Assembly: GCA_019058295.1 (NCBI GenBank)
Contig: JAHPZI010000018.1
Location: 2,134-66,133 of the forward strand
DNA length: 64,000 nucleotides
Source of the DNA: Promethearchaeota archaeon
GTDB lineage: Archaea > Asgardarchaeota > Lokiarchaeia > Sigyniarchaeales > SOKP01
Direction: 5' to 3'
The notes beneath the pieces are model-generated. The model searched no databases, was not told the DNA's origin, and was given only the letters and a program-made list of their open reading frames with translations. Positions 8,654-60,906 of the stretch are shown in pieces; positions within the stretch are counted from its first letter, which is position 1; each line of letters starts with the position of its first letter. A program made the translations under genes and the position numbers.

Positions 8654-8728
8654 CTTTTTTGAATAAAAATTATACTATTCCTAATTGTTTCATATATCAT
8701 AATATAATTAAAATTGAATTTAAATTTA

Positions 8729-9937
8729 TTATTTCATACAACAATCTTTATATTTTTTACCGCTTCCACAAGGGCATGGATCATTACGACCAATTTTTGG
8801 TATTTTAATTGGAATATGAGTCTTAATATTGCGTTCAGTTCTAATTTGCTGCGCTATTCTTTTAAATTGCGTTAAAGTATGTGCATAAAACATCCTCCAG
8901 CCTTTGCATAGAAGACTTAATGTTCTTGATGATTTAGAACCACCAATTCGAAATTTTTGGCAATCTCCATGACAGAGATTTAGATAAGGACAGTTATTAC
9001 AATACTCATTCCAATTAACTTTTTGGCGTCCAAAGCGAAGATATAACGGAGATTTTAAAAAACCATCCCAAGTACCTGTTTTCAGATTTCCAAGTAAAAG
9101 ATCTTTGCGAACAAAAAAATCGCATGGATAAACATTACCATCATATTCAACAACAAAATACTGACAACAATTATTATTCATGAAGCAAACATTATACCGT
9201 CCATATACTAAATATTCCAAAATTGAATCAAATAAACGGATAGAAATCTTATACATATCCTCTTTTATCCATTCGTCAAATAATTCGCATAGAAAAGTTC
9301 CCCATTCTTTTCCAGTTATTGAATAGCTATGAGGTTTATTATTTTTATCAAATTCAATACAAGGGATATATTGATGATAGAAAAAACCTTGTGACTTCAT
9401 ATATTGATATATTTCCCTTGCCTTCTTTACAGTTTTATTATTAACTAAAATTAAGATGTTAAACTCTACATTTTGTTTTTTTAGAATCTCAATACCACGC
9501 ATAACTAAAGAATGAGTTGGTGTCTGACCGAGAGTTTTTCTATAATAATCGTGAAGATATGGAGGTCCATCTAGGCTCACTCCAAGAAGGAATTTATATT
9601 TTCCAAAAAGTTTAGCCATTTCTTCCGTAATTAACGTCCCATTTGTTTGAAGGCCATTACTTACAGCAGCACCAGGAGTTCCGTATTTTTTTTGGAATTC
9701 TACAACCTTTTCAAAGAATTTTAATCCCATTAATGTAGGTTCCCCTCCTTGCCATCCAAAAGAATAGTTATTATATTGATTTGTGTTCATATAACTTTTA
9801 ATCAAAATCTCTAATGTTTCATCAGACATGCGAGGAGCATTTGTTCCCTCTTCTAAATGGTCTATATAAAAACAATATTCACATCTGAGATTACAATCTG
9901 CTGAAGCGGGTTTTATCAATAGCGAAAAAGGTTTCAA
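8729..9937 (-). CDS. Anaerobic sulfatase-maturating enzyme (radical SAM, SPASM) with C-terminal SEC-C motif
   Basis: N-terminus [19 protein letters not shown] (CxxxCxxC), typical of anSME. Cys-rich SPASM region ([14 protein letters not shown]). Tail [18 protein letters not shown] is a SEC-C-type zinc motif. Lies adjacent to the sulfatase. Confidence 0.85.
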
Positions 9938-27351: not shown

Positions 27352-28767
27352 TTATTCACTCAAAAGACCAAATCTTTTAAGACCTTCCCTCATTTCGGCT
27401 TGAAATGGACCCGGAGTTCCTTTTATGAATGCTTCAATAATATCTTGATCTTCTATCCTATTTGAGGAACGCTTTTTAGCCTTTTCCTCTGCAAGAGAAG
27501 AAATAGCCATCCTTGCCATGGATTGAAATGCCGGAGGGGATAATTGTATAAGCTCCTCAAAGACATTTGCAGTTTCAGGATCCCAGTCTAATCCCTTTTT
27601 TGTTTCTTCACTAGGCTCAGAAAGATTAAGCCCAAATTCACGACTTGTAATGATGTTTTTTAAATATTCCCTTAAGGACTGAACATAACGTGGAGATTTT
27701 TCTTGATCAAGAACCACTGCTTTTTTTGCCCATTCTTTACAATAGTTACAGTCATCGCACATTGCTACACAATCTTGCTTTTTAAAGAAGTCGATAAAGC
27801 CATCTAGTTTGGTGTTGTCAATATATAATTTAGATTTTGATTCTTTTCCAATAGTTTTAGTTATTCCTATATTAGGATCTTTCTCTTCCAATCCACCGTG
27901 AGACATCGAAAATCCTTGAATAATATCAACAAGATTACCTTCATATTTTCGTGATGAAAAAGCTTTTACAGACCTTAGGATCCAATCAGTGGTCATACGC
28001 CTTCCCGCGATTTTAAAATCAGTAATCCCAATCTCTTCATAGTGAACTAAATCTTCTGGACGAACCCAACGACATTTCAATACTTCTTCTGGTGTAGAAA
28101 ATTTAATGATACTACAATTGATTATACATGTATCTACATAATTACGTTCAAATTGTTGATATGTCTGTGAAGCATGTCCTAGGGTATTATAATGATAATA
28201 TCTAAAAGGACATTGATATAAACATCCATCAGTTAAAAGTAATACGATCTTACATTTTACTGCTTTCTTTATTTTACTGAGCGTCTTAAAATCACGATTA
28301 ATCATTATATCCGGAGTTATTTCATCCGCCCCAAGCATCTCATAAAATTTAGCTCGATTCACACTATTTACGTGTGAGATGGTAGAAACTCGGACTTTAA
28401 GCTTAGGAAACTGTTCTTTAATCAGCTGTATTAAAAAGGGGATAGTTACAATTACGCTATCGCTACCAATATCACTAATCCATTGAATATACTCGATAAG
28501 CTTGCTATGATAATGCGAATCATACTCAATATTGTTCATACAGGGAGCATTTAGCAAATAAGAAAATTTCATTTTTTTCTTATGTACTTTATCGATATAT
28601 TCTGCTATATCTCCTTTTGAAATGTCTGGTAATAAAAATGAAGGGCGCCCTCCTCCCACTATTGAATGATTAGAAACTCCATAGAGATCTGTCACAGGAT
28701 ATTTAGCCAATTCTTCTATTAAGCTTAAGTCCCAATTAGTTGCAACATAAAATTGAATTAATATCAC
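27352..28767 (-). CDS. U32-family-like (UbiU/V-type) Fe-S TIM-barrel protein with C-terminal PCP_red-like domain
   Basis: 471 aa. The core is paralogous to 28867..30903 (GGGRPSFLLP, TDGCLYQCPFRYYHY..HASQT, DFKIAGRRMTTDW resembling the U32 KIEGR block). Extra CVAMCDDCNYC motif. The last ~80 aa (LDWDPETANVFEELIQLSPPAFQ...AEEKAKK...PGPFQAEMREGLKRFGL) match the domain at the N-termini of the 32102, 34762 and 36187 ORFs. Confidence 0.6.
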   Translation of the reverse strand: MILIQFYVATNWDLSLIEELAKYPVTDLYGVSNHSIVGGGRPSFLLPDISKGDIAEYIDKVHKKKMKFSYLLNAPCMNNIEYDSHYHSKLIEYIQWISDIGSDSVIVTIPFLIQLIKEQFPKLKVRVSTISHVNSVNRAKFYEMLGADEITPDIMINRDFKTLSKIKKAVKCKIVLLLTDGCLYQCPFRYYHYNTLGHASQTYQQFERNYVDTCIINCSIIKFSTPEEVLKCRWVRPEDLVHYEEIGITDFKIAGRRMTTDWILRSVKAFSSRKYEGNLVDIIQGFSMSHGGLEEKDPNIGITKTIGKESKSKLYIDNTKLDGFIDFFKKQDCVAMCDDCNYCKEWAKKAVVLDQEKSPRYVQSLREYLKNIITSREFGLNLSEPSEETKKGLDWDPETANVFEELIQLSPPAFQSMARMAISSLAEEKAKKRSSNRIEDQDIIEAFIKGTPGPFQAEMREGLKRFGLLSE

Positions 28768-28866
28768 CTATTATTTTGGGTTATTTTTTGTTTATGTACA
28801 TTTTTTTTCTTATTTAATACTTAAATAAAAATATTTTAGATTTAGATTATTTTCTTTTTAGCTTTT

Positions 28867-30903
28867 TCATTTATTTGCTATTTCATGAGCTTTTGCGTTA
28901 AGCGGTAATAAAGGTGCACATGCCATAAGTTTATTAACATCTCCTTCTACGATATATGTTCCTGCCATCGTTGCTTGAATCGGATCTGACTCTCCCGAAT
29001 TAACCTTTTGGATGGTGGCAAAATCCGTTTTATGAATAATTTTTGGGGCGTCAGGTCCTGAATATTCACCCATCCCCCAATCCATCTTATCTTTATCAAC
29101 AAATTGCCAGTAATTCATTTCAGGTTTATCACTTATATTATATTGAAAGATTAATGGAGCAATAGGTTCTAATAAAGGCTTTAAATCCGGCAATTCATTA
29201 TAAGCTTTCATGAAACGCATAAGATATGCTTCCCATTCTTCCTTTGTATCCAATTTAATTATCACCTCCTTTAATTTTTGTTTTTCGTCTAATTTAGATT
29301 CTTTATTTACTTCTCCCACCTTTTTTACCTTCTGAGAGATGAGTTCAGTACTTAACGGGAGAGATGTTATATATTCAATCTCATCTCCCGTCATATATTG
29401 ATTTATATTAATATTCTTTTTAATTAAAAAATCGATATAATCATGTTTAAACGGTTGAGGAACTAATTCAATTATTATAGCTATCAATAAATCCTTAGTT
29501 ACCCTCTTTAATTCTTGCTTTTCTGCAGTTCTTTCTGCAGTAAATCCAATTCCCTTGGTTGCAGCCTCATGCATCTCTCTGGGAATTAGGTCCATTACTT
29601 CTTTCAAAAATTTTTTTGCATCATTATCCCAAGGAATCCCAAAATATGTTCCTATTTCGGCTGATTTAACAGGACTTTTAAGTTTTCGCTCTTCTTTGGA
29701 TAAAAACATATCTCCTGTATTTAGATATTTTAAGAGATATGCCATATATTCCTTATATGATTCTGTAATTCCTCCTTCAGGTTGAGAATAAGCTATTTTT
29801 GTTAGACTATGACAATAAAAACATGTGATTCCACAAGTTTCTACGCATCTAGCACCTCTATGTGGCATATTTTCAATGAATGTAGTCAGCTTGTTCCCAT
29901 CTAATACTGCATCAAATTCGGGCACGCTTAACAGTAGACTTTGGTTATCCGTGTCAGTTCCCATTTTAACTTGCCTAGCGGAAAATTCATTGAATTGATT
30001 ACCAGCTAAAATTAACGGATCAGATTCGAATGAATAACCATTAAAAATTTTACCGAGGTTACCATTGGAATTCTTATAACTATAAGCTTTTAATGCATTA
30101 AATAACCATTTGGTCCCATATCTCCTTCCAGATATCTTAAAATAATCAATACCAATCTCAATATATTTATCAAGATCTGCTGGTTGAATCCATTTAGACA
30201 TTACTATCTGTTCTTGATTAAAACATTTTTGATTCTGACAGGCAATAGTAGCCCAATCATTATAATATCCTTCTAAACAATCATGGGTTTGGCTTGCGTG
30301 GGAGCATTCAGTATAATGAAAAAAACGAAAAGGGCATTCATTAAGACAGCAATCGTTAGTCAATAATTCTATATCACACTTTACTGCTTTTCTAATTTCT
30401 TCTAAAAGGGGAAAATTACGATTAAGCATTATAGATAAAGTCAATACACCATCAGTACCAATTATTTCTTCCCATTCCAAAGCCCGGGTAAGAGAATTGA
30501 CTTCAGCTATTACAGAAACCTTTAATTTTAATTTAGGATGATAGGTTTTAGCAAATTGAGCGAGATAAGGATCTGTAACTGTTAAATATTCTACGCCCAA
30601 ATCATCTAACCAGTCTAATTCGTATAGTGCTTTTGTTTGTTCTTTGGAATTAAATTTATAATATCCAAGACACTCACCATTCCATAGCCATGTAAATTTG
30701 AAATTTAAATCATGAACTTTATTAATAAATTTTTCAATTTCAGCTTTATCTCGTTTAGCCATTAAAAAAAAGGGTCGCCCAGATCCAGTGAAACTCATGT
30801 CGGAAGCGCCATAAAAATCATTTATAGTTTTCATTAAATGATTATCATTTTCTATGAGAGTCAATAAATCTATTTTCCAATTGCATGCTAATGATATTCT
30901 CAA
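28867..30903 (-). CDS. U32-family-like protein fused to an internal PCP_red-like domain and a C-terminal SCP2 lipid-binding domain
   Basis: 678 aa. Residues 1-300 are U32-like (SGRPFFLM, NDCCLNECPFRFFHY..HASQT, YFKISGRRYGTKW). 4-Cys motif CVETCGITCFYC at ~353-364. Residues ~422-495 are PCP_red-like (IPWDNDAKKFLKEVMDLIPREMH...AERTAEK...PQPFKHDYIDFL). Residues ~555-670 are SCP2-like (DFATIQKVNSGESDPIQATMAGTYIVEGDVNKLMACAPLL). Confidence 0.6.
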   Translation of the reverse strand: MRISLACNWKIDLLTLIENDNHLMKTINDFYGASDMSFTGSGRPFFLMAKRDKAEIEKFINKVHDLNFKFTWLWNGECLGYYKFNSKEQTKALYELDWLDDLGVEYLTVTDPYLAQFAKTYHPKLKLKVSVIAEVNSLTRALEWEEIIGTDGVLTLSIMLNRNFPLLEEIRKAVKCDIELLTNDCCLNECPFRFFHYTECSHASQTHDCLEGYYNDWATIACQNQKCFNQEQIVMSKWIQPADLDKYIEIGIDYFKISGRRYGTKWLFNALKAYSYKNSNGNLGKIFNGYSFESDPLILAGNQFNEFSARQVKMGTDTDNQSLLLSVPEFDAVLDGNKLTTFIENMPHRGARCVETCGITCFYCHSLTKIAYSQPEGGITESYKEYMAYLLKYLNTGDMFLSKEERKLKSPVKSAEIGTYFGIPWDNDAKKFLKEVMDLIPREMHEAATKGIGFTAERTAEKQELKRVTKDLLIAIIIELVPQPFKHDYIDFLIKKNININQYMTGDEIEYITSLPLSTELISQKVKKVGEVNKESKLDEKQKLKEVIIKLDTKEEWEAYLMRFMKAYNELPDLKPLLEPIAPLIFQYNISDKPEMNYWQFVDKDKMDWGMGEYSGPDAPKIIHKTDFATIQKVNSGESDPIQATMAGTYIVEGDVNKLMACAPLLPLNAKAHEIANK

Positions 30904-30907
30904 AATT

Positions 30908-31969
30908 TCACCTCTGTATTACTCCATTTTCCATAATTTTCATTTTTTCATCTATTAATCTTAAGATTTTAGCTTTCTCTTCTGCATTTCCATTCCTTAG
31001 CTTTTTGGAAAATTCAATGCAATAATTATTTATTTCCTTTTCTGAAGGATAGTGAGAATCATAAGAGTAATTATTGCAAAATTCATTAACAATTTCAGAT
31101 TTCAACTCAAATAGAGAATTTTTAACATTATCATAAGGCCAGAATTCACCATAAGGTTGAGGAATATTGATAAATTCATTAAAGTTAACTTTTAATTCTC
31201 TTTGGGTGTAGCTTCTAATTATTTCAATTATTTTTTTAGAAGTAAATCCCCCAGTATATAGAGAAAATGTATTATATCCAAGATCTTCATACAATTTTAT
31301 ATTACTTGGTGAAATCCATCCAGCTTTCAAGAGATTTTCAGGTTTCTCTAACCTTTTTTTCCAGCAGTAGAGTAGTGGGTAATCAAACTCATCTTCAACA
31401 TCGGATAATTCTTCTTGATTTGAAAAAACAGGGGAACCTATTGTTCTATGACTTTGTAAGTTATGATGTTGATACCAATGAATACACCCCCAATTACACC
31501 CAATATTCAATGGTAAGATATAATCAAGATCTTCAGATCCTTTAAATTTGTTCTTAAGCTTAATAAAATTTTCTAATACTTTAAAATATCTCAAGATATC
31601 AGGATTTAAAATAATAATATCAGCACCAATTTCAAAAAAGATTTTCCCACGATTTAATGAAGTGACACATTGTGAATATGATAAGTAAATTTTCATCATT
31701 GGAGCATTTTCTTTAAAAAATCCAATATTATTTGGAGATGATAATAATACATCTTTGTATCCCAACTTCTTTAAATTTTGAATTAAATCTTTTGTAGCTC
31801 TATATTGTTGAAAATGAGCTTCTAAATTCCCTTGACAAGTTGAATCCAAACCTGCTATTGGAATTATTCCGTTTTCTTGAATTATTTTAGTATATTCTTC
31901 AAATTCTTTAATTGATGGGAGATTTCTTGGAAGAAATATTGAACTATTCCCAATAGGATTTTGTGGCAC
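30908..31969 (-). CDS. Divergent U32-family-like protein (third paralog); N-terminus probably extends upstream
   Basis: GTG start in the ORF track. Core blocks ILPLNIGCNWGCIHWYQHH..SH and WISPSNIKLYEDLGYNTF parallel the two neighbours. The frame stays open to 32089 and encodes FRIKFIIDGDYHKDLIALINKEKLPVSHIIVH, which aligns with the paralog N-termini. Confidence 0.5.
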   Translation of the reverse strand: MPQNPIGNSSIFLPRNLPSIKEFEEYTKIIQENGIIPIAGLDSTCQGNLEAHFQQYRATKDLIQNLKKLGYKDVLLSSPNNIGFFKENAPMMKIYLSYSQCVTSLNRGKIFFEIGADIIILNPDILRYFKVLENFIKLKNKFKGSEDLDYILPLNIGCNWGCIHWYQHHNLQSHRTIGSPVFSNQEELSDVEDEFDYPLLYCWKKRLEKPENLLKAGWISPSNIKLYEDLGYNTFSLYTGGFTSKKIIEIIRSYTQRELKVNFNEFINIPQPYGEFWPYDNVKNSLFELKSEIVNEFCNNYSYDSHYPSEKEINNYCIEFSKKLRNGNAEEKAKILRLIDEKMKIMENGVIQR

Positions 31970-32101
31970 GTGAACAATAATATGACTAACTGGTAATTTC
32001 TCTTTATTAATAAGAGCAATTAAATCCTTATGATAATCTCCATCAATTATAAATTTTATTCTAAAATCACTTTTTCTGTTTTTATCTTTTTAAAAAAAAA
32101 T

Positions 32102-33274
32102 TTAATTATAAGATTCAAGTCCCGCCTTACAACCCATTGATAAAAAGTCTACCATCGTGCCGTTATAATCGTTCTCAATCTTGTAATAAAATCCTTTTTG
32201 AGAGAATGTAGCGCCCCAAATAAATTTCTTAGAATCGCTTTGGAGAGGTGTTTTTTCTATGAAATCCCTCATTAAAGGATGAAGATGGGAAGGAACTTCT
32301 TTTGGATAATCACATGTGATCCCAAAACATAGTCGCTCGATTTTATTTGAATCCCAACTAAAAGTATAGTTAAGATGTGCTGCTTTACGACATCCCTCCA
32401 TCACCTCTTTGGACGCAGGCTCGAATCCTAGATCTTTCACCAGTGAAACGCAACTCTCATAAGAAGACTCAGCTGGTTGTTTAAGCATGAAATAAATATT
32501 AGTCGTATTATGAAGGAAATCGAATGCAAAAAGACTAAATGAGGTTAATCCATGCTTATTGAAGTAATCCTTATATGCGTTCATACTCTCTGGAATTGAT
32601 TTCATGGAATAAATTGGATCAATTGAACCGGGCACAACAAATGGCCAAATTTTTGATAACCCAGTTTCTGCATCAACATCTACTCCATATCCCATTATCT
32701 CGAATGAATTTATAGCTTCAACAATCATTTTATGGATAGGATGTCCATTTTTTTCTAGTAATCCTTCATTAATTGCAGTTGTATATGGGTCTGGATTATG
32801 AGGGATAAAAAATTCAACATATCTTACCGCTACATCTCTTTTTCCAATGGGTTTAGCGGTGGTTCTTATGGATACGGGAGCTCCTCTAAAAAACTTTTCA
32901 TAAGTATTAAAGGATTTCCAAATTGCATCCTTATTACATTTTACACCAGCGATATCGCAAATTTTAGCCATATCTTCAACCATTTTATTAAGATCGGTAT
33001 TACATTTAAAATCACTTTTCACTTTAGCCATATATCTATCATAGTCCACTCCAAGTTTAGTTAAGTCCTCAATCATTGTTGGTTGAAATGCAGGTGGCGT
33101 TACTTCAAACAACGCAACTACTAAATCAACTTCTGCGACTTCTGTTCCACTTCTTTCCATACATTTTTTTTCTGCTCCTTCGAGGAGTGCAGGTTTTACG
33201 GCGGGGCGTACCATCTCAGGTACTCCTAATAACACTTTTTCAAAAAGTTGTTTTACTTCTGGTTGCCATTCCAT
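32102..33274 (-). CDS. PCP_red-like N-terminal domain fused to an ABBA-fold aromatic prenyltransferase (NphB/CloQ/Orf2 family)-like domain
   Basis: 390 aa. Residues 1-85 are MEWQPEVKQLFEKVLLGVPEMVRPAVKP...AEKKC...TPPAFQPTMIEDLTKLGVDYDRY. The remainder shows blocks I recall from NphB: PDPYTTAINEGLL..NGHPI (cf. GDPYATVVEKGLF..TGHPV), TNIYF (cf. VNLYF), NKIERLCFGI (cf. GKIDRLCFAV) and GFYYKIENDY (cf. EEYYKLGAYY). Confidence 0.65.
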   Translation of the reverse strand: MEWQPEVKQLFEKVLLGVPEMVRPAVKPALLEGAEKKCMERSGTEVAEVDLVVALFEVTPPAFQPTMIEDLTKLGVDYDRYMAKVKSDFKCNTDLNKMVEDMAKICDIAGVKCNKDAIWKSFNTYEKFFRGAPVSIRTTAKPIGKRDVAVRYVEFFIPHNPDPYTTAINEGLLEKNGHPIHKMIVEAINSFEIMGYGVDVDAETGLSKIWPFVVPGSIDPIYSMKSIPESMNAYKDYFNKHGLTSFSLFAFDFLHNTTNIYFMLKQPAESSYESCVSLVKDLGFEPASKEVMEGCRKAAHLNYTFSWDSNKIERLCFGITCDYPKEVPSHLHPLMRDFIEKTPLQSDSKKFIWGATFSQKGFYYKIENDYNGTMVDFLSMGCKAGLESYN

Positions 33275-33313
33275 TATGTTCTACCTCTTTTTTTTTTTTA
33301 TTTTTTTTTTTAT

Positions 33314-34738
33314 TTATTGTAAATATTTAGCAAATTGAACTTGGCTCATTTCTGCAAATCCCTCTGGATTATTAAAACCAAGCCCAGGCATCATCCATCT
33401 TGGATTTGATTCCCCATACTTTCTTACTATTTGAAATAGATCTACTTCCTTGATTTTTGGGGAAATATAAAATTTAGGTTTTAAGAGATTTTCTCCTTTT
33501 TGGATAACCCCTTCTTCTTCAGCAATTTGCTGAAGAATTGTATGAGGATAAATTCTCATACCTATAAAGATGATTACATCTCCATCGCCTTGCCATAAAT
33601 TTCCTTGATAACTCTCCATAGTCTCAAGTCGATCTAAAGAAACTTGGATTGTTTCTAGAGTTTCTCCTGGACCTCCAACAATAACATGCAATAATTGCTC
33701 AATTTCCAAATCTATACACTTCTTTGACGTAAGAATCGCGTCATCTGGAGATCTCGATTTATTCATATTTTTTAACATCTCTTCTGAGAGAGATTCGATA
33801 CCAGTTGCAAAATGAACCGCACCACTCTCTTTCATGAGAGGCATTAAATCTATAAATTTTTTGTTGGGGACATAATTTACGCCCCAGTTTAGGGCTATTT
33901 TATTATTAATTATTTCTTGACAGGTATTTTTTACGTGATTATAATCCAAATTGAAAACACTGTCCACGATAAATATATTTTTAATTCCGTAATTATTTAC
34001 AATTAAATCGAGTTCTTTAGCAATATTTCCGGGGGATCTATATCGAACATTAGAATCCTCAATATACCTATAACTACAGTAAATGCATTTCATAGGACAA
34101 CCACGTTTAGTTTGAATATTACCCCAAACTGGACCTGATTTATTCATTGGATCTATAAGATAGGCATCATTTTCCAGCAATTCCCTTGTTGGTATTGGGA
34201 GATCATCTAGATTCTCAACCCGCCAAGGTGGTTTATGATGATATTTTCCTTTTTGATCTATAAAACAAATACCCTTCTCAATTGTTCTAGGATCGTCATC
34301 GTTTTCAATCTTTTTTAAAAATTCCGCAAAGACATATTCACCATCCCCAATTACCCCTATATTATGATTTAAATCTCTAAGAATTTCCTCTGAAAAAATT
34401 GAAAAACCAGCACCTCCTAACACAATTGGAATTTCCGGTTCTACAAGTTCTTTAATATATAAAATAATATTTTTTACTGGTAAGTAAAAGAATAGATTTC
34501 CCGGGTATGTTGTTGAGTCAACATTACGAATTGAAATCCCTATTAAATGAGGATTAAAATCATAAATTACTTTTGAAACATCTTTTTTATAATCATTACT
34601 AAGAGTTAAATCAAGCAATTTAACCTCATGACCTTGACTAAGAAGGTAAGCTGCAAGATATGCTTCTCCTAAGGGAGGGACCATAACATGAACAATCTCC
34701 CTACTCCCAGAGATTATTAATACACGCAATTTAATCAC
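33314..34738 (-). CDS. Class B (B12-binding-domain) radical SAM enzyme
   Basis: 474 aa. N-terminal Rossmann-like B12-type domain (PPLGEAYLAAYLLSQGHEVKLLD...LIGISI...VLGGAG...VIGDGE), then KRGCPMKCIYCSY (CxxxCxxC). Confidence 0.8.
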   Translation of the reverse strand: MIKLRVLIISGSREIVHVMVPPLGEAYLAAYLLSQGHEVKLLDLTLSNDYKKDVSKVIYDFNPHLIGISIRNVDSTTYPGNLFFYLPVKNIILYIKELVEPEIPIVLGGAGFSIFSEEILRDLNHNIGVIGDGEYVFAEFLKKIENDDDPRTIEKGICFIDQKGKYHHKPPWRVENLDDLPIPTRELLENDAYLIDPMNKSGPVWGNIQTKRGCPMKCIYCSYRYIEDSNVRYRSPGNIAKELDLIVNNYGIKNIFIVDSVFNLDYNHVKNTCQEIINNKIALNWGVNYVPNKKFIDLMPLMKESGAVHFATGIESLSEEMLKNMNKSRSPDDAILTSKKCIDLEIEQLLHVIVGGPGETLETIQVSLDRLETMESYQGNLWQGDGDVIIFIGMRIYPHTILQQIAEEEGVIQKGENLLKPKFYISPKIKEVDLFQIVRKYGESNPRWMMPGLGFNNPEGFAEMSQVQFAKYLQ

Positions 34739-34761
34739 TCTTAGTCTTTACAAATTTAATT

Positions 34762-36174
34762 TCATTCAATTAATTCGATTTCTTCTTCAATTTCTTCTTT
34801 TTGAGAAACATCAACTTCATGTTCATGATCATTTTCATGCCAGCAGAACGGAAACGATCCAAAGAAATCACCCGTGATATATTCCGCAGTTACACGACAT
34901 CCCCCACCGCAATATTTTAAATGATGGCAAGAGGCACATTTTCCTTTAATCTTCTTTCTATCACGAATATCCCTGTAGAGCTGTGAATTTAATACATCTT
35001 CAAAATCATCCTCCAATGCATTACCAAGAGTCAATGTTGTAGGATATCCCGCAGGGAATATTGTTCCATCTATACCAATTCCCATCATTGTCCTACAAGC
35101 TAAACAACCTACTCCCCATTCAATCGCTGCCAATTCTTTATCATTTTTTGGATGTTCCATAAAGGGCATCATATCATATATTTCATAAGCAGGTAATGTA
35201 CCTGCCTTACCTTTCCTTATCGTCTCAATAGCATGTTTGTATTTGAAATCATACATTTTTTTATATTCTTCTGAATTAAGACCGATTTCATCCCAAAATT
35301 CAGCAGCCCGATTTTGTTTCACTACACATCGAAAATATGGTTGTGATCCCCATTTTTCTGATAATATTTTAATCTCTTCTAATTCATCAATGTTTTGCTT
35401 CATAATTGTAATTGAAGAGCATACAAATATTCCATATTTCAAACAAAGATCTATTGCTTTCTTAGCATAATCTAAGGAATTGGGAAACCCACGAATCTCA
35501 TCATTTTTCTTAGGATCAACACTGTCAAAACTAACAAATATATGACTAATATTGTTATCTTTACACATTTTGGCGAAATCTTCATCGAATCTCACTCCAT
35601 TGGTGATAAGAGCGTGAATATAATCCTTCTCTTTACAAAATCTCATAATCTCACCAATGTCTTTTCTCAAAGTGGGCTCACCACCAAACCATATAAAGCA
35701 GGCATGTCTTCCTTGTTTTCGCAAACCTGTTTCAACATTTTCTATTATTTGACACCATTTCTCTGCTGATAATTCTGGCCGTGCTATTTGATCATCCGCA
35801 GCACAGTGAATACATTTTTGATTACATTTGTCAGTCAAATACATGGCAAAGTGTATATTTCCGGGATGAAACCCCCGCTCTAGTTTTTGCCATGAAACCT
35901 TCAATCGATCCTTGATTTCCTTCAGTTCTATATAACGTTCGACATCAATTCCTAATTTTGTTAAATCTTCTACCATTATTGATTTAAATGCTTCAGGAAT
36001 TATGTCAAAAATACCCAGAACAACATCAGCATCATTAATATAAGCAGCATTCCGATCAAGACATCTTTTTTCTGCAGCCTCTATGATTAATGGTTTCACG
36101 GAAGGACGAAATCCTTGTGGCATTTGTTCTACTATTCTACCAAATAATTTCTGTGTCTCCTTTTCCCATTCCAT
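34762..36174 (-). CDS. PCP_red-like domain + radical SAM + SPASM-domain enzyme
   Basis: 470 aa. N-terminus MEWEKETQKLFGRIVEQMPQGFRPSVKP...AEKRC...IPEAFKSIMVEDLTKLGIDVERY. TDKCNQKCIHCAA (CxxxCxxC). GGEPT. SPASM Cys blocks GVGCLACR... and GKCASCHHLKYCGGGC. Tail PFCWHENDHEHE. Confidence 0.8.
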   Translation of the reverse strand: MEWEKETQKLFGRIVEQMPQGFRPSVKPLIIEAAEKRCLDRNAAYINDADVVLGIFDIIPEAFKSIMVEDLTKLGIDVERYIELKEIKDRLKVSWQKLERGFHPGNIHFAMYLTDKCNQKCIHCAADDQIARPELSAEKWCQIIENVETGLRKQGRHACFIWFGGEPTLRKDIGEIMRFCKEKDYIHALITNGVRFDEDFAKMCKDNNISHIFVSFDSVDPKKNDEIRGFPNSLDYAKKAIDLCLKYGIFVCSSITIMKQNIDELEEIKILSEKWGSQPYFRCVVKQNRAAEFWDEIGLNSEEYKKMYDFKYKHAIETIRKGKAGTLPAYEIYDMMPFMEHPKNDKELAAIEWGVGCLACRTMMGIGIDGTIFPAGYPTTLTLGNALEDDFEDVLNSQLYRDIRDRKKIKGKCASCHHLKYCGGGCRVTAEYITGDFFGSFPFCWHENDHEHEVDVSQKEEIEEEIELIE

Positions 36175-36186
36175 AGAATTTCACCT

Positions 36187-37554
36187 TTAAGCACAATTAT
36201 CATGCTCATGGTCATCATCATGCCAACAAAACGGGAGCTCAGCTAGAAAATCACCAGTTACGGTTTCAGCATGGACCCTACAACCCCCACCACATAAGTC
36301 AAGATGATGACAAGTAGAGCATTTCCCTTTTATTTTTCGATCTCTAATTTTTTTAAACATTTCGGTTTCCATAATTTCATCCCAACTTTGCTCAAGAATG
36401 TTGCCTAAGATTAAATCAGAAGGATAATCACAAGGGAATACATCTCCATTGGTATCAATCCCAGAAATTGAGCGGCAAGCTTGGCATCCTGTGCCCCATT
36501 CGATCGCAGTCCTTTCTTCATCATTTACAGGACACTCCATAAATGGCACCATATCCCATGTATAGAATTTATTAAGCGATGAAGCTTCTCCTTTTCTGAT
36601 AGCTTCTATAGCATGTTTATATTTGAAATCATAGAATTGTCGATATTCATCCATATTTAAGCCAATTTCGTCCCAATTTAAATCGGCCGAACGTTGTTTG
36701 ATCAGGGGTCTGTAAAAGGGAGTTACTCCTCTAGAGTTAAAATATTCCCTTAATTTATCTAATTCATCAAAGTTCTCTTTTTGTGCAGTTACATTAGCAA
36801 TTGTAAAAAGTCCATATTTTGCAGCTAAATCTAACGCTTTTTCCCCTGCTTCGTATGCTTTTGGGTGCCCTCTAATTTTTGCAGCCCGTTTGGGATCTGT
36901 ACTATCATAACTAATAAAAACATGGCTCATTTTAGCATCTGCGCATATTTTCGCCAATTCATCATTAAATAAAATTCCATTGGTCGCAAGTGATTGATAA
37001 TAACCCTTCTCACCGCAATATTTAATTAAATCTTTAAGATCTTTACGAATTGTAGGCTCCCCGCCAAACCATATATAACATCCTCGACGACCACGTTTTC
37101 GTAAGCTTTGTTCAAGATCCTCAATAATTTCAATCCATGTTTCAATGGGTAATTCTGGACGTTTATCCATTACCGAAGCAGCACAATGAAGACAATTTTG
37201 ATTGCATCGGTCAGTGAGATATATAGTAAAATGATAAACCCCGGGTAAAAAGGCACCACTAATTTCATCCCATGTACGTGCATATTTTGTTCTAATTTCT
37301 GATAATTTTACATAGCGATCTGTATCAATATCTAATTTTTTTAAATCTTCGACTACTGCTGGTTGAAATGCCTCGGGTGTTATCTCAAATAGTGCAGAAA
37401 GCAAATCATCTTCACTTACAAATCCAGAATTCCTAAGTCGTGCTGTTTTTTCAGCAGCTTCTCGCAACATAGGCTTAACAGAAGCACGAAATGCCTCAGG
37501 TACTTGATCTGTGATTTTTCCAAACATTTGTTCCATTTCTATATTCCATTCCAT
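36187..37554 (-). CDS. PCP_red-like domain + radical SAM + SPASM-domain enzyme (paralog)
   Basis: 455 aa. Same architecture: TDRCNQNCLHCAA, GGEPT, GTGCQACR, GKCSTCHHLDLCGGGC, tail PFCWHDDDHEHD. Confidence 0.8.
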   Translation of the reverse strand: MEWNIEMEQMFGKITDQVPEAFRASVKPMLREAAEKTARLRNSGFVSEDDLLSALFEITPEAFQPAVVEDLKKLDIDTDRYVKLSEIRTKYARTWDEISGAFLPGVYHFTIYLTDRCNQNCLHCAASVMDKRPELPIETWIEIIEDLEQSLRKRGRRGCYIWFGGEPTIRKDLKDLIKYCGEKGYYQSLATNGILFNDELAKICADAKMSHVFISYDSTDPKRAAKIRGHPKAYEAGEKALDLAAKYGLFTIANVTAQKENFDELDKLREYFNSRGVTPFYRPLIKQRSADLNWDEIGLNMDEYRQFYDFKYKHAIEAIRKGEASSLNKFYTWDMVPFMECPVNDEERTAIEWGTGCQACRSISGIDTNGDVFPCDYPSDLILGNILEQSWDEIMETEMFKKIRDRKIKGKCSTCHHLDLCGGGCRVHAETVTGDFLAELPFCWHDDDHEHDNCA

Positions 37555-37662
37555 ATTTTTTTCACCTTATTATGATTTTTTACTCTCTTTTTTCTAAAAA
37601 TAATTCATTTTTAAGTTTAAATTGCAAATTAATTTTAAAATCATAGGTAATAACAAATTTTA

Positions 37663-38346
37663 TCATTTTTTTCCCCCCTCCCGTATAAAATGTTTATTAA
37701 AATCAGCAAAATTATTAATTTTGGGATGGCAATAATGATTGATTAAACGAAAAATCAAAAAACTTTCAAAATCAGAATGATAACAGAATACTTTGAGATT
37801 ATTGTAGCGATTATTTAATATATACTTGGTTTTTCTATGCAAAATTCTGTTTTGAATAAAATTAATTCTATAAATTTTTCTTCTCAAATTGTCATTAAAA
37901 TTATGAATTCTCTCATTTAAGCTATAATCTCTTTTATTTCGATCTCCTTTATTCTTATTATCGAGATATTCTATCGATTCATCATTTAGTCCAAGAGAAC
38001 CCAAACTTATATAAAAAAATATTTTTGTATCTTCATTTAAGAATGCATTTTTAACATAATGATAAAAAGCCGTATCAATATAACAAATGATATTATAAAT
38101 TATGATGATGTCAATCAAATGACCGAGGCTAAACTGGATTGTGTGAGATTCGTGAGGCAAAAATCCTAATATATTGATGTAAGGTAAAATAGGAATGAAA
38201 ATTGACTTGCCAGAGGTAATATATTCAGTTAATAAAGAAGAAAAAACTGGAACATCTCTTAAAAACATGAAAATGAACAAGCTCGTGAGATAAGAAAAAA
38301 TAACGCTAAAGATCAAGACTATTTTCAAAATTTTAAGTTTATGCAC
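37663..38346 (-). CDS. Hypothetical membrane protein
   Basis: 227 aa, GTG start preceded by GAGAGAGGA. About 3 N-terminal TM segments, then a basic, Asn/Arg-rich C-terminal half. No family recognised. Confidence 0.35.
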   Translation of the reverse strand: MHKLKILKIVLIFSVIFSYLTSLFIFMFLRDVPVFSSLLTEYITSGKSIFIPILPYINILGFLPHESHTIQFSLGHLIDIIIIYNIICYIDTAFYHYVKNAFLNEDTKIFFYISLGSLGLNDESIEYLDNKNKGDRNKRDYSLNERIHNFNDNLRRKIYRINFIQNRILHRKTKYILNNRYNNLKVFCYHSDFESFLIFRLINHYCHPKINNFADFNKHFIREGGKK

Positions 38347-38474
38347 GTATTTAATCCTCTCTCTATCATTAATAATTGATTATAATCTTAGAGTTATTGA
38401 ATAATGAAAATACTGAAGCATTAGTTATAAATATAACTGTGATTAAATAATCAGATAATGCAATAATTAAATCC

Positions 38475-39965
38475 TTATTTATCTCTCTTTTTAGGATATT
38501 TCGAACTAGATGTTAGAAGCATAGGTGCAGTGCTTAAAAATAATAGCATGTTTGCATAACGAATAAAACCTCCAGAAAAATGTTTCTTATCATAGTTAAT
38601 TACATTATAAAAATAGGATGGTTTAGTTCGCTTGAAAATGTTAACAATCTGCGGAAAAGAATTAAATTTTAGTTTTATTTTAAATTTTTCAGGAGATTCA
38701 TGGGCAGGAGAACCAGGGAAAATATGATAAGGTTCACTCATAATTGTAATTGGTTTGAAATTGGAATTACCATATTTTAAAAGGCATTTAGTCGCAAAAT
38801 GAAAATCCTTAAGAATATCAAACCGATTTTGGAAAGGAAGACCGATAGTTAACCATATCCGTAATAATATTTGAGATAAATTTGCATTTTTTATTAAATC
38901 ATTAATTTGACTTTCTGGAAATTTAAATGTTGGATCACAAGTTTTAGCTATTTTTTGCTGAACTTTAGCTGATAATGTTCGAGGAGAAATACTGATTGAT
39001 GAATATCTACGAGCAAAAGTCTTCTCAAAGATTCTCCACATTTCTTTAGGAAAGGGTAGCCGCCATATCTCTAAATCTCCACTAATATCAATTTTTTCCT
39101 TTTGAATCAGCCCAAATAATTTTTTCCAATATTTTAAATTAGCAGGATATGTACCATGTCCGAAAAAGACACTTGGAACTTTATAATTGTCGAGAATATT
39201 GTGGAGATCTTCTATTATTTTTTCTGGACTTCTGAGAACGACCTCATTTCGACCCGTTAGTTTTTGCTGAGCTCTTTGACCTCCTCCACAAAAAGGACAA
39301 TTAAATGGACAGCCCCTTCCAATTGGAAGATTGAGAGAGATTCCCATAATCTTTCTGCTATACTCAAGATATTGTTTTGCATTATTTAGAAGTGATACAT
39401 TAATAAAATTCAAATCATCCAATGTTTTTGCTGTATAGGAAAGAGAATTAACTTTTATGTGTTTAGAGGTATCTCGATAAGATAAATTGGGAACAGAATC
39501 TAATGATTGATTTTTATTAATCTTTTGAACATATTTTAAAAATGGAACTTCCCCTTCGCCTCTAATTATACCGTCAATTTCTTTATAGTATTTTAATAGT
39601 TCACTATGGTAATATGAAGCACTAAAACCTCCAAGAATTACATTAGCATGGGGATTTACTTTTTTTACGATTCTAGCAACTTCAATAGCACCATTTGCAT
39701 TATGTATCCAATGTAAATCTATTCCACATACATCAAAATTAATATTTTTAAGAAAGTCGGCTAATGACCAATTACGATTTAGATATTGCTCTAATGGATA
39801 ATTTATAATTTTAACTCCAAAACCCCCTTTCTCAAGCAAATCGGCAATGCTAAAAACACCCATTGGAATGAATAAATATTCCCCTCGTTTAAATTTGGAT
39901 CTTTTATTATTAATAGGTTTTACTACTCTAGGTGGATGGATGAGTAAAACATCGTAGCTTTTCAA
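38475..39965 (-). CDS. Class B (B12-binding-domain) radical SAM enzyme
   Basis: 496 aa. B12-type N-terminal domain (PMGVFSIADLLEKGGFGVKIIN...CGIDLHW...ILGGFS...IRGEGE), then GRGCPFNCPFCGG (CxxxCxxC). Confidence 0.75.
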   Translation of the reverse strand: MKSYDVLLIHPPRVVKPINNKRSKFKRGEYLFIPMGVFSIADLLEKGGFGVKIINYPLEQYLNRNWSLADFLKNINFDVCGIDLHWIHNANGAIEVARIVKKVNPHANVILGGFSASYYHSELLKYYKEIDGIIRGEGEVPFLKYVQKINKNQSLDSVPNLSYRDTSKHIKVNSLSYTAKTLDDLNFINVSLLNNAKQYLEYSRKIMGISLNLPIGRGCPFNCPFCGGGQRAQQKLTGRNEVVLRSPEKIIEDLHNILDNYKVPSVFFGHGTYPANLKYWKKLFGLIQKEKIDISGDLEIWRLPFPKEMWRIFEKTFARRYSSISISPRTLSAKVQQKIAKTCDPTFKFPESQINDLIKNANLSQILLRIWLTIGLPFQNRFDILKDFHFATKCLLKYGNSNFKPITIMSEPYHIFPGSPAHESPEKFKIKLKFNSFPQIVNIFKRTKPSYFYNVINYDKKHFSGGFIRYANMLLFLSTAPMLLTSSSKYPKKRDK

Positions 39966-40152: not shown

Positions 40153-41136
40153 TTGAATAAAATGAGTGATATGGCAAATATTTTAGAATATATGAATTTA
40201 GCAGATTTTTTATTTATTGTTGTATTTCCATCAGTTTTACTTTTACTACTTTTAATTATCTTTATAAGTGGATTATTTAAAGAAAAACCAAAGCATGAGC
40301 TTATGACATTGGATGAATTCATGATGGATTGGCTTAAAGATCACGGACAAGCTCACAAATTGGAAGAACAGTTTGCGAGAATGAAAAAAGATCCAGCAGG
40401 GAAAATTTATATGCCATTAACATATCATGGCGGAATAATTGCTATAAAATGTGGTTTAACTCCAAATAAGGTATCTTATATAAATCTAATTTTATCCTTT
40501 TTCATATTTTGGGCTGTAATAATGATTAGTAAAGGTCATACTCTAAATCTATTTTCTAAACAACCGTACTTTGGCTCTTGGTTTATTCCTCTTGCCTTTT
40601 TAGCCTTATTTACAGGAATTATTGATGGGATTGATGGAGCGATAGCTAGGATATTGGATATAAAGTCTAAAAGTGGTGCGTGGTTAGATAATGTGATTGA
40701 CAGAATTAGTGATATATTATTACTTGTTTGTTTCGTTCCAACTAGTTTTATGGTTGTTTCGATATTAGGATTTAAGTTTGATTTTACATGGATAGTTTGG
40801 ACGAATATTTTCCTAATTTTTCTCTATGAATACATGAGAGCGAGACATGAAGGGTTAGGTTTACATGAAACCAAACCAACTATAGGAGAAAGAATAACTA
40901 GATTTTTTGTAATCTTTATATTCTTTTTAATTTACGGTATTTCGAGCTTCTTTGTATTATTAACAAATTGGATTAATCCCAATGCTACGAAGATATGGAC
41001 TGATTCGCACATTGGCACAATTACTTGGAATATGCTAATTTATCAGATAACTCTATTTTTGATTATGATCTTCTCATTGATTAAATTAGGGAGTTATAGT
41101 TTTAAAAACCTGAAGAAATTGGATAGTGGAGATTAA
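40153..41136 (+). CDS. CDP-alcohol phosphatidyltransferase-family membrane enzyme
   Basis: Complete signature D-x2-DG-x2-AR-x8-G-x3-D-x3-D in IIDGIDGAIARILDIKSKSGAWLDNVIDRISD. Multiple TM segments. The true start may be the ATG at 40162 rather than the TTG at 40153. Confidence 0.85.
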   Translation: MNKMSDMANILEYMNLADFLFIVVFPSVLLLLLLIIFISGLFKEKPKHELMTLDEFMMDWLKDHGQAHKLEEQFARMKKDPAGKIYMPLTYHGGIIAIKCGLTPNKVSYINLILSFFIFWAVIMISKGHTLNLFSKQPYFGSWFIPLAFLALFTGIIDGIDGAIARILDIKSKSGAWLDNVIDRISDILLLVCFVPTSFMVVSILGFKFDFTWIVWTNIFLIFLYEYMRARHEGLGLHETKPTIGERITRFFVIFIFFLIYGISSFFVLLTNWINPNATKIWTDSHIGTITWNMLIYQITLFLIMIFSLIKLGSYSFKNLKKLDSGD

Positions 41137-41239
41137 AAAATAAAAAAAGAGGTTATGAAATATCAATTTCAAAGGTTTTATATACTTAGTTGTACTGGTA
41201 ATCTTTTTTGTTCTATTACATATTTATTTTCCCCCTTAT

Positions 41240-42511
41240 TTGTCATCTGGAACTAAAGAAGCAATAGATACATTCATTGCCGACCCTTTGACTTATTGGT
41301 GGTTTGTATTTCCATTATTTGGATTAATCATGTGGTTAGTATTGATTATATATTATGGAAAATATTTCTTAGCATCATTTGGTCGTGGTTATCGAACCAA
41401 AACACCTTATTATCCAAAAATAAGTATAATGATCGCTTCTAAAAATGAAAGAAAATTATTAGAAAGAACATTAAATTCGATTGTTAAAACAGACTATCCA
41501 AAAGAGAATATCCAAATAATTATAATAACAAGTGGATCAACAGACGATACAACAGAATTTAGTCAAAATTTTGCAAAAGAGCATCATACAATAGATATAG
41601 AAGTGTTATCAGAGAATTTACCTAAAAAAGGAAAGCCTCCAGCTATGAATTACGGTCTAAAATATGTAAAAAATGATATTATTGTCCTTTATGATTCAGG
41701 TTGTATTTTACAAATAGATACATTGAGAAATTTATTATCCCCTTTTCAAAAGAATAAAATTAATGCTGTTATTGGACCTGTTTTAGTTGAAAATTGGAAG
41801 ACTAATACATTGACTAGAGCTATTTACCTTGATTATGCTTTTTTATCTGGTGGTGGATTATTATTTGAATCTAAAAATAGATTAGGTAAATCAGCTTTTT
41901 CATATGGAAGAAATTTTGCTGTTAGGACGAAATACCTTAAGAAATATGGAGGTTTTAATGAAGATTCATGCACAGAAGATCTTTATCTTTCTGTGCTTTT
42001 AAATATGGATGGAATAAAAATTTACTTTTCACCTAAAGCAAAAGTTTATGAATATGTACCTACTACTTGGGAGATCTTAACAAAACAACGAGAACGATGG
42101 CTCGCAGGATATATCTTTGATATGCCACAATTAATGGCAATGGAAGGAGAAAAAAAGAATGGGAAATCGATAATTATTTCAAGAAATATGACAATGACAT
42201 TCATAGGGAATATGGATTCGTGGATGCCCATATTTATTGGATTAGCAATACTCTTTTTCTTAATTGGAGAGTTTTATCTCTTAAGTTGGACCCTCGCTTG
42301 TTTATTTTTTCAATTTGGATTTTTGTTCAATTCAGTACGTAAGTATGGAGATTGGCATATGAGCATTTTGTTTTTATGGCCATTATCGGGTTATATACAT
42401 CTTTATATGTTTCTACATCAGTTCCATTTACCAAGAGAAATAAGTTGGGAAAAAACTCCAATGTTATTAGAAAAACAAGAGGAAGAAATAGAAGCTTTAT
42501 CTGCTAAATAA
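41240..42511 (+). CDS. Family-2 glycosyltransferase, processive-type (QxxRW) with flanking TM segments
   Basis: 423 aa, TTG start. ISIMIASKNE...DYP...IIIITSGSTDDT, YDSG and TEDLY blocks, QRERW (Q-x-x-R-W) motif. One N-terminal and several C-terminal TM segments. Confidence 0.75.
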   Translation: MSSGTKEAIDTFIADPLTYWWFVFPLFGLIMWLVLIIYYGKYFLASFGRGYRTKTPYYPKISIMIASKNERKLLERTLNSIVKTDYPKENIQIIIITSGSTDDTTEFSQNFAKEHHTIDIEVLSENLPKKGKPPAMNYGLKYVKNDIIVLYDSGCILQIDTLRNLLSPFQKNKINAVIGPVLVENWKTNTLTRAIYLDYAFLSGGGLLFESKNRLGKSAFSYGRNFAVRTKYLKKYGGFNEDSCTEDLYLSVLLNMDGIKIYFSPKAKVYEYVPTTWEILTKQRERWLAGYIFDMPQLMAMEGEKKNGKSIIISRNMTMTFIGNMDSWMPIFIGLAILFFLIGEFYLLSWTLACLFFQFGFLFNSVRKYGDWHMSILFLWPLSGYIHLYMFLHQFHLPREISWEKTPMLLEKQEEEIEALSAK

Positions 42512-42644
42512 CTTTGTATAAACACTAATCAATTTTATTTATATGAAATTAAGGTCTCTCTTTAACTATTATCTCTCTATTATATTTTAATAAGATTAAA
42601 AATAAAAAAATAACTACTAAGGTTAATTAAGGAGTATTTTTTTA

Positions 42645-44090: not shown

Positions 44091-44118
44091 TGATAAATTA
44101 AAAATGTGAGATATAAAT

Positions 44119-45624: not shown

Positions 45625-45644
45625 TTAGATGGGGGATCTTTATT

Positions 45645-60797: not shown

Positions 60798-60853
60798 TAT
60801 TATTTATAGAAAAAAAATAAATAAAAATTTTTTAAAAACAATTCAAAAGTATG

Positions 60854-60883: not shown

Positions 60884-60906
60884 AAATATAAAAAAAAGGG
60901 CTAAAT

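Follow-up and report, generated by a model that had tools for sequence, protein, structure and literature searches.

What does a soluble aromatic prenyltransferase of the ABBA type do in an operon of radical enzymes in an archaeon? The question is raised by a 64,000-nucleotide stretch of contig JAHPZI010000018.1 (hereafter the window) from a Promethearchaeota archaeon, a member of the Asgard archaea, the closest prokaryotic relatives of eukaryotes. On the minus strand of the window, an open reading frame (ORF) of 390 amino acids (32102..33274) joins an N-terminal adaptor module to a C-terminal ABBA, or PT-barrel, domain, as seen in the ORF call, the AlphaFold2 model and the homologs. Bacterial and fungal secondary metabolism is, to our knowledge, the only setting in which soluble ABBA prenyltransferases have so far been characterised. 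The evidence presented below confirms the family assignment and points to a conserved pathway that would make a lipophilic prenylated aromatic compound without O2, with this protein (hereafter the PT) carrying out the prenylation step, a reading to which we assign a probability of roughly 0.55.

The prenyltransferase domain

An ABBA-fold domain had been proposed by a first-pass annotation of the window, and profile search, residue conservation and predicted fold all uphold it. The hidden Markov model PF11468 (PTase_Orf2) matches residues 94-378 of the ORF at E=1.6e-53, covering 2-283 of its 287 positions; the score, 182.4 bits, is far above the cut-off of 22. Every match found for the ORF by sequence search of the PDB is an ABBA prenyltransferase, the phmmer E-values being 2e-37 for FamD1/AmbP3, 1e-35 for AmbP1, 2e-32 for EpzP, 2e-26 for NphB and 3e-13 for CloQ; a search of NCBIfam matched no curated family. 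The four NphB-like blocks that had led to the proposal are all present. In a MAFFT alignment with the NphB reference sequence, which is that of PDB 1zb6_A (100% identical over 307 residues), the blocks at query residues 161-180, 258-262, 310-319 and 361-370 align with NphB positions 72, 172, 224 and 280, with 9/20, 3/5, 6/10 and 4/10 identities, respectively. The similarity is thus far beyond chance, and the ORF is a genuine member of the Orf2/NphB/CloQ family.

The AlphaFold2 model, built on a family alignment of 52 sequences, has a mean predicted local distance difference test score (pLDDT) of 95.6 and a predicted template modelling score (pTM) of 0.92. It comprises ten β-strands alternating with helices, the predicted counterpart of the family's ten-stranded antiparallel barrel of five α-β-β-α repeats. 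Foldseek comparison with the PDB identified AmbP3 as the best match (E=1.9e-27, target-normalised TM-score 0.91-0.92) together with FamD1 and AmbP1, followed by EpzP, NphB and CloQ with target-normalised TM-scores of 0.78-0.87 (NphB 0.80). Normalised to the query, the value drops to about 0.69, since the barrel does not include the first ~90 residues. DMATS-type and cyanobactin enzymes reach E-values of only about 1e-5 (LimF, E=3.5e-5, TM-score 0.42-0.52). The catalytic barrel occupies residues 93-390, which with the stop codon correspond to 32102..32998 on the minus strand. No DDxxD or NDxxD motif, as found in UbiA-type enzymes and trans-prenyl synthases, is present in the PT, nor any 19-residue segment with a Kyte-Doolittle mean above 1.6 that would indicate a transmembrane helix; judged by its sequence, the PT is a soluble two-domain enzyme.

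The residues that bind the prenyl diphosphate in NphB are fully retained. K119, N173, Y175, R228 and K284 of NphB correspond to K208, N259, Y261, R314 and K365 of the PT, each conserved in 52/52 sequences of the family alignment, and NphB Y121 is replaced by a tryptophan (W210) that is likewise invariant. The position of the NphB Mg2+ ligand D62 is occupied by alanine in 23/52 sequences and by serine in 29/52, with an invariant arginine (R151) two residues further on; R137 and R146 are invariant as well. CloQ-type ABBA enzymes also do without the NDxxD/DDxxD motif, and are Mg2+-independent (PMC7839719). The loss of D62, the three invariant arginines and the missing NDxxD/DDxxD motif, which CloQ lacks too, together suggest a CloQ-like mode in which the prenyl diphosphate would be ionised without Mg2+. 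On the acceptor side, S214, G286, Y288 and Q295 of NphB are replaced by H300, E367 (invariant), D369 and D376. With these changes, the acceptor is not expected to be that of NphB. Alkylation of electron-rich aromatic rings is the reaction known from characterised PF11468 enzymes (PMC7839719).

Comparison with solved relatives shows both what is shared and what sets the Asgard protein apart. Sequence and fold are closest to AmbP1, AmbP3 and FamD1 (PDB 5yk9, 5y4g and 5ynt), which are likewise soluble 10-strand PT-barrels (phmmer 1e-35 to 2e-37; Foldseek ~1e-27, target-normalised TM-scores 0.83-0.92, 28-30% identity). Unlike the PT, these enzymes lack an adaptor domain at the N-terminus, take indole isonitriles and hapalindoles as substrates, and belong to cyanobacterial hapalindole/ambiguine natural-product clusters rather than to an operon with radical S-adenosylmethionine (radical SAM), U32 and SCP2 proteins. 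NphB (Orf2) of Streptomyces sp. CL190 (PDB 1zb6), the founding PF11468 member, shares the fold and the five diphosphate ligands, but it has the Mg ligand D62 in place of Ala/Ser, a different acceptor pocket and an overall identity of 24%. CloQ and EpzP share the fold; CloQ, like the PT, is without the NDxxD motif, yet its similarity to the PT is lower (E=3e-13). Thus the archaeal setting emphasised in the first-pass annotation is correct, but the nearest solved relatives are cyanobacterial enzymes of the AmbP/FamD group and not actinobacterial ones.

The N-terminal adaptor module

Residues 1-85 of the PT (33020..33274, minus strand) form a separate domain fused to the barrel, as had been suspected, and this domain recurs in the operon. 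Modelled alone by AlphaFold2 (pLDDT 88), the module consists of five helices and two β elements of two residues each. Five proteins of the operon carry it: besides the PT, phmmer detects the module in two radical SAM-SPASM enzymes (residues 1-83 in each; E=1.5e-25 for enzyme 1 and E=6e-24 for enzyme 2) and in two of three U32 proteins (U32a, residues 393-468, E=2e-9; U32b, residues 424-505, E=2e-4).

The label "PCP_red-like" that the module had been given cannot be retained in the sense of family membership. Only 2/5 copies match PF08369 at all, the better of them with 14.3 bits (E=0.04) where the cut-off is 32.5. The resemblance is remote: the nuclear magnetic resonance structures of PCP_red proteins 2l09 and 2kru rank first and seventh in the Foldseek search, with E-values of 0.31-0.42 over ~60 columns and TM-scores of ~0.4 (query-normalised) and ~0.5 (target-normalised). 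DUF2621 (PF11084) matches all five copies weakly, with 16-25 bits against a cut-off of 27.7 and over profile positions 57-137 of 139; membership was rejected, as the scores are below cut-off and only the C-terminal half of the model is covered. No Foldseek match reached E<=0.001, and a sequence profile of the module searched against the PDB returned only noise (E>=0.007, a designed protein). PCP_red and DUF2621 domains are comparable in size and helical content, but the module family is distinct from both and rare, and it is tied to PT, SPASM, U32 and SCP2 proteins. A more fitting description is that of a helical adaptor domain, rare and DUF2621-like.

A search with the module profile of 1.84e9 representative proteins recovered 248 at E<=1e-3. 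Among the best 148 of these, 78 are stand-alone proteins of <120 amino acids, and the longer ones are mostly relatives of the U32, radical SAM-SPASM, ABBA PT or SCP2 proteins. Rarer fusions join the module to a class-I methyltransferase, an HpaB phenol-hydroxylase C-domain, a PNPOx-like flavoprotein, a LuxC plus radical SAM-SPASM protein and a NuoE-like [2Fe-2S] ferredoxin. Matches to HEAT-repeat proteins (P0185, P0250) were judged spurious, a product of helical-repeat similarity. The place of the module relative to the barrel varies, either N- or C-terminal (P0114, P0115, P0117 and the Thermoplasmata copy), and P0116 lacks it. The genes around the methyltransferase fusion code for HpaB, an Amidohydro_2 decarboxylase, a P450 and a flavin halogenase; such a cluster is typical of the tailoring of aromatic small molecules, and the HpaB fusion fits the same chemistry. 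The LuxC fusion, of 949 amino acids, occurs on a bacterial contig (L008, 7420-12850), where LuxC acyl-CoA reductase, module and radical SAM-SPASM domains are combined in one protein after LuxE and a second LuxC gene; this fusion links the module-SPASM type to fatty-acyl or aldehyde chemistry.

The module is therefore a mobile, non-catalytic adaptor. Its most likely role is to recognise a ligand or carrier that the enzymes share, or to keep these enzymes together, in which case it may dock them onto one another or onto the SCP2 carrier.

Organization and conservation of the operon

The radical SAM/U32 operon in which the PT had been placed is real and is conserved across Asgard loci. In the window it comprises nine genes (27352-39965), all on the minus strand and separated by gaps of 4-132 bp. 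The first gene (38475..39965) encodes a B12-binding radical SAM protein by its Pfam and NCBIfam matches; it is TIGR04190-like and is kept at the cluster edge in three related loci (L001, L003, L004). It is followed by a small membrane protein (37663..38346), the sole operon protein with transmembrane-like segments, which has no match in Pfam or NCBIfam and whose orthologs lie at the corresponding place in Loki, Thor and Odin loci.

Next come the two module-bearing radical SAM-SPASM enzymes, enzyme 2 (36187..37554) and enzyme 1 (34762..36174), paralogs with 50% identity in which Pfam recognises Radical_SAM and SPASM domains after the module. For both, the five best NCBIfam matches are AhbD, NirJ1, AhbC, NirJ2 and NirJ, with scores 3-5 fold below the cut-offs. 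Directly upstream of the PT lies a second B12-binding radical SAM gene (33314..34738; Pfam B12-binding and Radical_SAM), which is syntenic in Asgard loci. Its best NCBIfam matches are TIGR04072 (261 bits, cut-off 360) and then BzaD (195 bits), which we take to be an aromatic C-methylase; the protein is likely a C-methyltransferase. Searches of NCBIfam and the PDB with the radical SAM-SPASM and B12-binding radical SAM proteins gave only generic, sub-threshold matches.

Three U32-family genes lie downstream of the PT. Peptidase_U32 is recognised above its cut-off of 22.4 bits in U32b (28867..30903; 35 bits), which also carries the module (424-505) and a SCP2 domain (~551-678), and in the last gene, U32a (27352..28767; 45 bits, E=1e-11), which ends with the module. 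Of 17 U32 sequences compared, 13-15 retain each of the cysteines C76/C182/C186/C218; C333/C337/C340/C343 make up a second set with a CX3CX2CX2C pattern. Only the first four-Cys set is present in the divergent U32 paralog immediately downstream of the PT (30908..~32060), which is 26% identical to U32a (BLASTP, E=2.6e-21) and 59-64% identical to orthologs of 383-389 amino acids in L003 and L005. The listed start of this paralog is at 31969, and the in-frame stretch upstream of it, IKFIIDGDYHKDLIALINKEKLPVSHIIVHVPQ... (31970-32090), matches the N-termini of the orthologs. This stretch contains no ATG, GTG or TTG after the preceding stop. Translation probably begins at a non-canonical codon near 32060, and automatic annotation would then cut the gene short.

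The SCP2 domain, taken in isolation, scores 25.2 bits against a cut-off of 21.3; 6/8 members of its family match, and the top three PDB profile matches are SCP2 proteins. In L001 and L004 it is a stand-alone gene of 128-129 amino acids, 73-81% identical to the C-terminus of U32b. Elsewhere it is fused to the PT (P0049, P0106) and, in Thor and Thermoplasmata loci, to radical SAM-SPASM proteins; every Asgard cluster has it, either as a gene of its own or as part of a fusion. Together with the U32 fusion of the window, these combinations constitute Rosetta-stone evidence that the fused partners act together on a hydrophobic ligand.

The gene order recurs in Loki, Thor and Odin genomes. Tblastn searches of GTDB loci found the PT, two SPASM proteins, U32 and SCP2 in nearly every Asgard locus with enough flanking sequence, and the Asgard PT is almost always accompanied by two radical SAM-SPASM proteins, a B12-binding radical SAM protein, U32 proteins and SCP2. 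None of the SPASM, U32 and SCP2 partners was detected by tblastn at the bacterial GTDB loci. The Thermoplasmata locus is minimal, consisting of a radical SAM-SPASM gene, a PT with a C-terminal module, a radical SAM-SPASM::SCP2 fusion and a module::radical SAM-SPASM fusion, with no U32 gene. A Thorarchaeota locus (L003, 17792-20355) is extended, with a third module-SPASM gene, an extra SCP2 gene and, directly downstream, a GlcD/GlcF-like pair of FAD_binding_4 and Fer4_8/CCG proteins.

Distribution and phylogeny of the prenyltransferase

A protein search yielded 121 PT homologs, nearly all of 390 amino acids, under the names Promethearchaeota/Lokiarchaeota, Thor-, Hod-, Hermod- and Odinarchaeota. 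Many of them are already annotated as "aromatic prenyltransferase" by the NCBI pipeline; family membership as such is therefore not new. A scan of one genome per GTDB species, using the labels on the metagenome-assembled genomes (MAGs), found 39 loci: 30 in Asgard MAGs, 4 in MAGs labelled "uncultured archaeon", 1 in Thermoplasmata (42% identity), 1 in a Proteobacteria MAG (36%) and 3 in Chloroflexota (28-33%, without the module). With 30 of 39 loci labelled Asgard, 5 more from uncultured or Thermoplasmata archaea and the NCBI names in agreement, the archaeal context of the gene is secure. Across at least five Asgard phyla the PT sequences are 53-95% identical and gene order is conserved. Several Asgard genomes encode two PT paralogs that share ~53% identity.

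Neighbour-joining analysis of the barrel domains places the Chloroflexota sequences, FamD1 and NphB outside the archaeal and module-bearing sequences, while the bacterial (Deltaproteobacteria/Proteobacteria) module-PTs form a clade with 99% bootstrap support. Bootstrap values of the deep nodes are only 20-30%, too low for a direction of transfer between Asgard archaea and bacteria to be read from the tree. On the question of horizontal transfer raised by the first-pass annotation, the PT family did not come recently from Streptomyces or cyanobacteria. In Asgard archaea it is a distinct, conserved and apparently vertically kept clade.

A few loci differ in context. A Deltaproteobacteria MAG (L052, 9001-11512) carries a tandem pair of PTase_Orf2 genes that are module-PT paralogs, and in another (L007, 10001-13115) a module-PT gene is followed by an HD-domain gene and a 389-amino-acid ORF of no known family; no radical SAM, U32 or SCP2 partner is present at either locus, and such lone or tandem genes give no hint of the acceptor. 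A protein 37% identical to the PT and bearing an N-terminal module (P0119) is encoded among methyltransferases, an ABC exporter and an AstC/squalene-hopene-cyclase-like gene (L006, 199-8556), a locus that resembles a meroterpenoid natural-product cluster, unlike the Asgard operon.

A search of full-text literature found no paper on archaeal ABBA prenyltransferases or on this operon, although most subscription journals lie outside its coverage. New here are a deep, mainly Asgard ABBA clade, the fusion of its members to a rare adaptor domain common to four other operon proteins, and a conserved anaerobic radical SAM/U32/SCP2 operon with no described product.

Proposed pathway

The composition of the operon recalls the O2-independent branch of ubiquinone biosynthesis. 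UbiU and UbiV are [4Fe-4S] U32 proteins needed to hydroxylate the prenylated ring of ubiquinone precursors independently of O2, and UbiT, their partner, is a SCP2 lipid-binding protein for which a natural UbiT-UbiU fusion exists (PMC6747719). The oxygen donor in this hydroxylation is prephenate (PMC10990095). Both systems pair U32 proteins with SCP2 and contain SCP2-U32 fusions (PMC6747719), the U32 likeness being one at the Pfam level only. Unlike the proteobacterial UbiU/UbiV/UbiT system, in which the membrane enzyme UbiA prenylates, the Asgard operon has a soluble ABBA enzyme, and it further contains radical SAM-SPASM and B12-binding radical SAM proteins, a second four-Cys set and the adaptor module. 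No UbiA, UbiD, UbiX, UbiE or UbiG, the enzymes that work with that system to turn 4-hydroxybenzoate into ubiquinone, was found among the window genes, so the likeness to UbiU/UbiV/UbiT is one of analogy and not of membership. The presence of U32 and SCP2 proteins beside a soluble PT and strictly anaerobic radical enzymes makes an O2-independent prenylated-aromatic pathway the most likely function, and a prenylated aromatic metabolite, which the first-pass annotation had also proposed, is a well-motivated inference.

In such a pathway the PT would bind its prenyl diphosphate through K208, N259, Y261, R314, K365 and Y363, ionise it, probably without Mg2+, and alkylate an electron-rich acceptor in a pocket unlike that of NphB (H300, E367, D369, D376). 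By analogy with UbiU/UbiV, the putative Fe-S U32 proteins would act as hydroxylases. The B12-binding radical SAM enzymes may carry out C-methylation and the radical SAM-SPASM pair remodelling or cyclisation, while the SCP2 domain, like UbiT/UbiJ, would hold the greasy intermediates.

Several observations weigh against this reading. For Asgard archaea of the Loki type, we know of no report of a prenylated aromatic lipid or quinone. Besides UbiA, UbiD, UbiX and UbiE, the window lacks a gene for an aromatic precursor or a prenyl-diphosphate synthase. With the radical SAM proteins far below the cut-off of every curated family, the chemistry of these enzymes is not assignable and the roles suggested for them are guesses. 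The cysteine spacing of the U32 proteins differs from the common CX6CX15CX3/4C pattern and from the motifs published for this group (PMC6747719), and the absence of U32 from the Thermoplasmata cluster places hydroxylation outside the invariant core. In bacteria, module-PT genes occur singly or in tandem with no partners beside them, which weakens a purely partner-docking role of the module, and the NuoE-like ferredoxin carries two modules in an unrelated context.

A broader and distinctly tentative proposal is that Asgard and a few other anaerobic archaea make a new class of prenylated aromatic lipids without O2, by means of a soluble ABBA enzyme, radical SAM-SPASM, U32 and B12-binding radical SAM proteins held together by the adaptor and SCP2. 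If so, the compound might serve as a redox carrier resembling a quinone, or as a signalling or antioxidant lipid, and the route would replace the universal membrane prenylation step of the UbiA type. The paradigm of U32 proteins as O2-independent hydroxylases would be extended beyond ubiquinone and RNA. A prenylated aromatic lipid would constitute a new archaeal membrane or redox metabolite with a bearing on how electrons are moved in syntrophic Asgard archaea. The adaptor domain common to the operon enzymes is a possible new means of pathway organisation, and the PT itself, which is compact, probably independent of metal and equipped with a new acceptor pocket, is of interest to biocatalysis.

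Alternative functions

The operon might instead tailor the isoprenoid glycerol lipids of archaea, with the barrel alkylating a non-aromatic acceptor, either olefinic or in the head group. The SCP2 carrier would suit such a function, as would the divergent operon next to the PT operon, which encodes a CDP-alcohol phosphatidyltransferase, a GT2 protein and three B12-binding radical SAM proteins; CDP-OH_P_transf adjoins the cluster in the Loki locus L001 too. The best NCBIfam match of the B12-binding radical SAM protein adjacent to the PT is a "lipid biosynthesis" family, the SPASM proteins weakly match GDGT/MAS synthase, and the bacterial module-SPASM protein is fused to LuxC within a LuxE/LuxC fatty-acyl cluster. 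Every one of the lipid-family scores is below cut-off, however, and neither the Thor and Odin loci nor the Thermoplasmata locus has CDP-OH_P_transf beside the cluster. The HpaB fusions and the context of the module-methyltransferase indicate aromatic substrates, and the known chemistry of PF11468 is aromatic (PMC7839719). Lipid tailoring is accordingly regarded as improbable.

The combination of radical SAM-SPASM, B12-binding radical SAM and prenyltransferase genes is typical of clusters for ribosomally synthesised and post-translationally modified peptides (RiPPs), which suggests another scheme. The module would recognise a leader peptide, the PT would prenylate a tyrosine, tryptophan or other residue of a ribosomal peptide, the radical SAM-SPASM enzymes would introduce cross-links, the B12-binding enzymes would C-methylate, and U32, nominally a peptidase family, would act as the peptidase. 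The SPASM proteins also match maturase models for mycofactocin, PqqE, ranthipeptides and sactipeptides, and the module precedes the radical SAM domain, the usual place of a RiPP recognition element (RRE). A credible precursor is nevertheless missing: the gaps of the operon hold only small AT-rich, low-complexity ORFs, and none was found among the genes that the syntenic loci have in common. The helical module has no significant structural match, with no RRE or PqqD-type entry among the 50 Foldseek matches listed; the PT groups with small-molecule ABBA enzymes (E ~1e-27) and not with the cyanobactin enzyme LimF (E=3.5e-5). SCP2 is a core component, fused to PT, U32 and radical SAM proteins, and the putative Fe-S cysteine sets are kept in the U32 proteins. 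We consider a RiPP pathway rather unlikely.

Modification of a tetrapyrrole is less probable still. Here the module would be a lid of the PCP_red type, the SPASM enzymes would process side chains in the manner of AhbD/NirJ, and the PT would prenylate a haem- or chlorin-like macrocycle. The AhbD/NirJ1/AhbC/NirJ2/NirJ matches of both SPASM proteins, the two PCP_red structures among the top seven Foldseek matches of the module and the resemblance of B12-binding radical SAM proteins in the window to BchE are what this scheme would draw on, but the AhbD/NirJ-type scores are 3-5 fold under their cut-offs and the PCP_red similarity is not significant. The cluster contains no other haem or sirohaem genes, and we know of no ABBA enzyme that acts on tetrapyrroles. 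Haem O and chlorophyll are prenylated by UbiA-type enzymes (PMC7839719).

That the PT is an isolated, horizontally acquired secondary-metabolism gene without functional relation to its neighbours, as the otherwise bacterial and fungal occurrence of ABBA enzymes and the lone module-PTs of Deltaproteobacteria and other bacterial MAGs might suggest, is highly unlikely, being contradicted by the conserved order in at least five Asgard phyla, the domain common to four neighbours and the SCP2 fusion.

Other loci in the window

The divergent operon that adjoins the PT operon (40153-47084, plus strand) encodes, besides the GT2 and three B12-binding radical SAM proteins, a CDP-alcohol phosphatidyltransferase that resembles archaetidylinositol-phosphate synthase, and it may be linked to membrane-lipid head groups. 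The three radical SAM genes form a tandem array (42645-47084) and most resemble BchE and HpnJ, with scores well below cut-off. They belong to a set of seven B12-binding radical SAM paralogs within 64 kb, the others being the two genes of the PT operon (33314-34738 and 38475-39965) and those at 51872-53350 and 55010-56464.

Three large ORFs have no Pfam match at E<=1e-5, namely a 751-amino-acid ORF (888-3143) and two adjacent ORFs of 613 and 615 amino acids (58956-62754, plus strand). A minus-strand pair (6326-9937) that has the appearance of an anaerobic sulfatase with its maturase consists of a 775-amino-acid sulfatase and, adjacent to it, a radical SAM-SPASM protein ending in a SEC-C motif; three EamA transporters flank the two. 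On the plus strand (21088-22863), two ORFs in the same frame, one of 139 amino acids with a FAD/NAD-binding N-terminus and one of 446 amino acids with multiple 4Fe-4S domains, are split by a TGA codon (21505-21507) in the context FPTDDCSI[TGA]ILGP. This is the site at which HdrA-type proteins carry cysteine or selenocysteine, and the pair is probably one selenocysteine-containing HdrA-like gene and not two.

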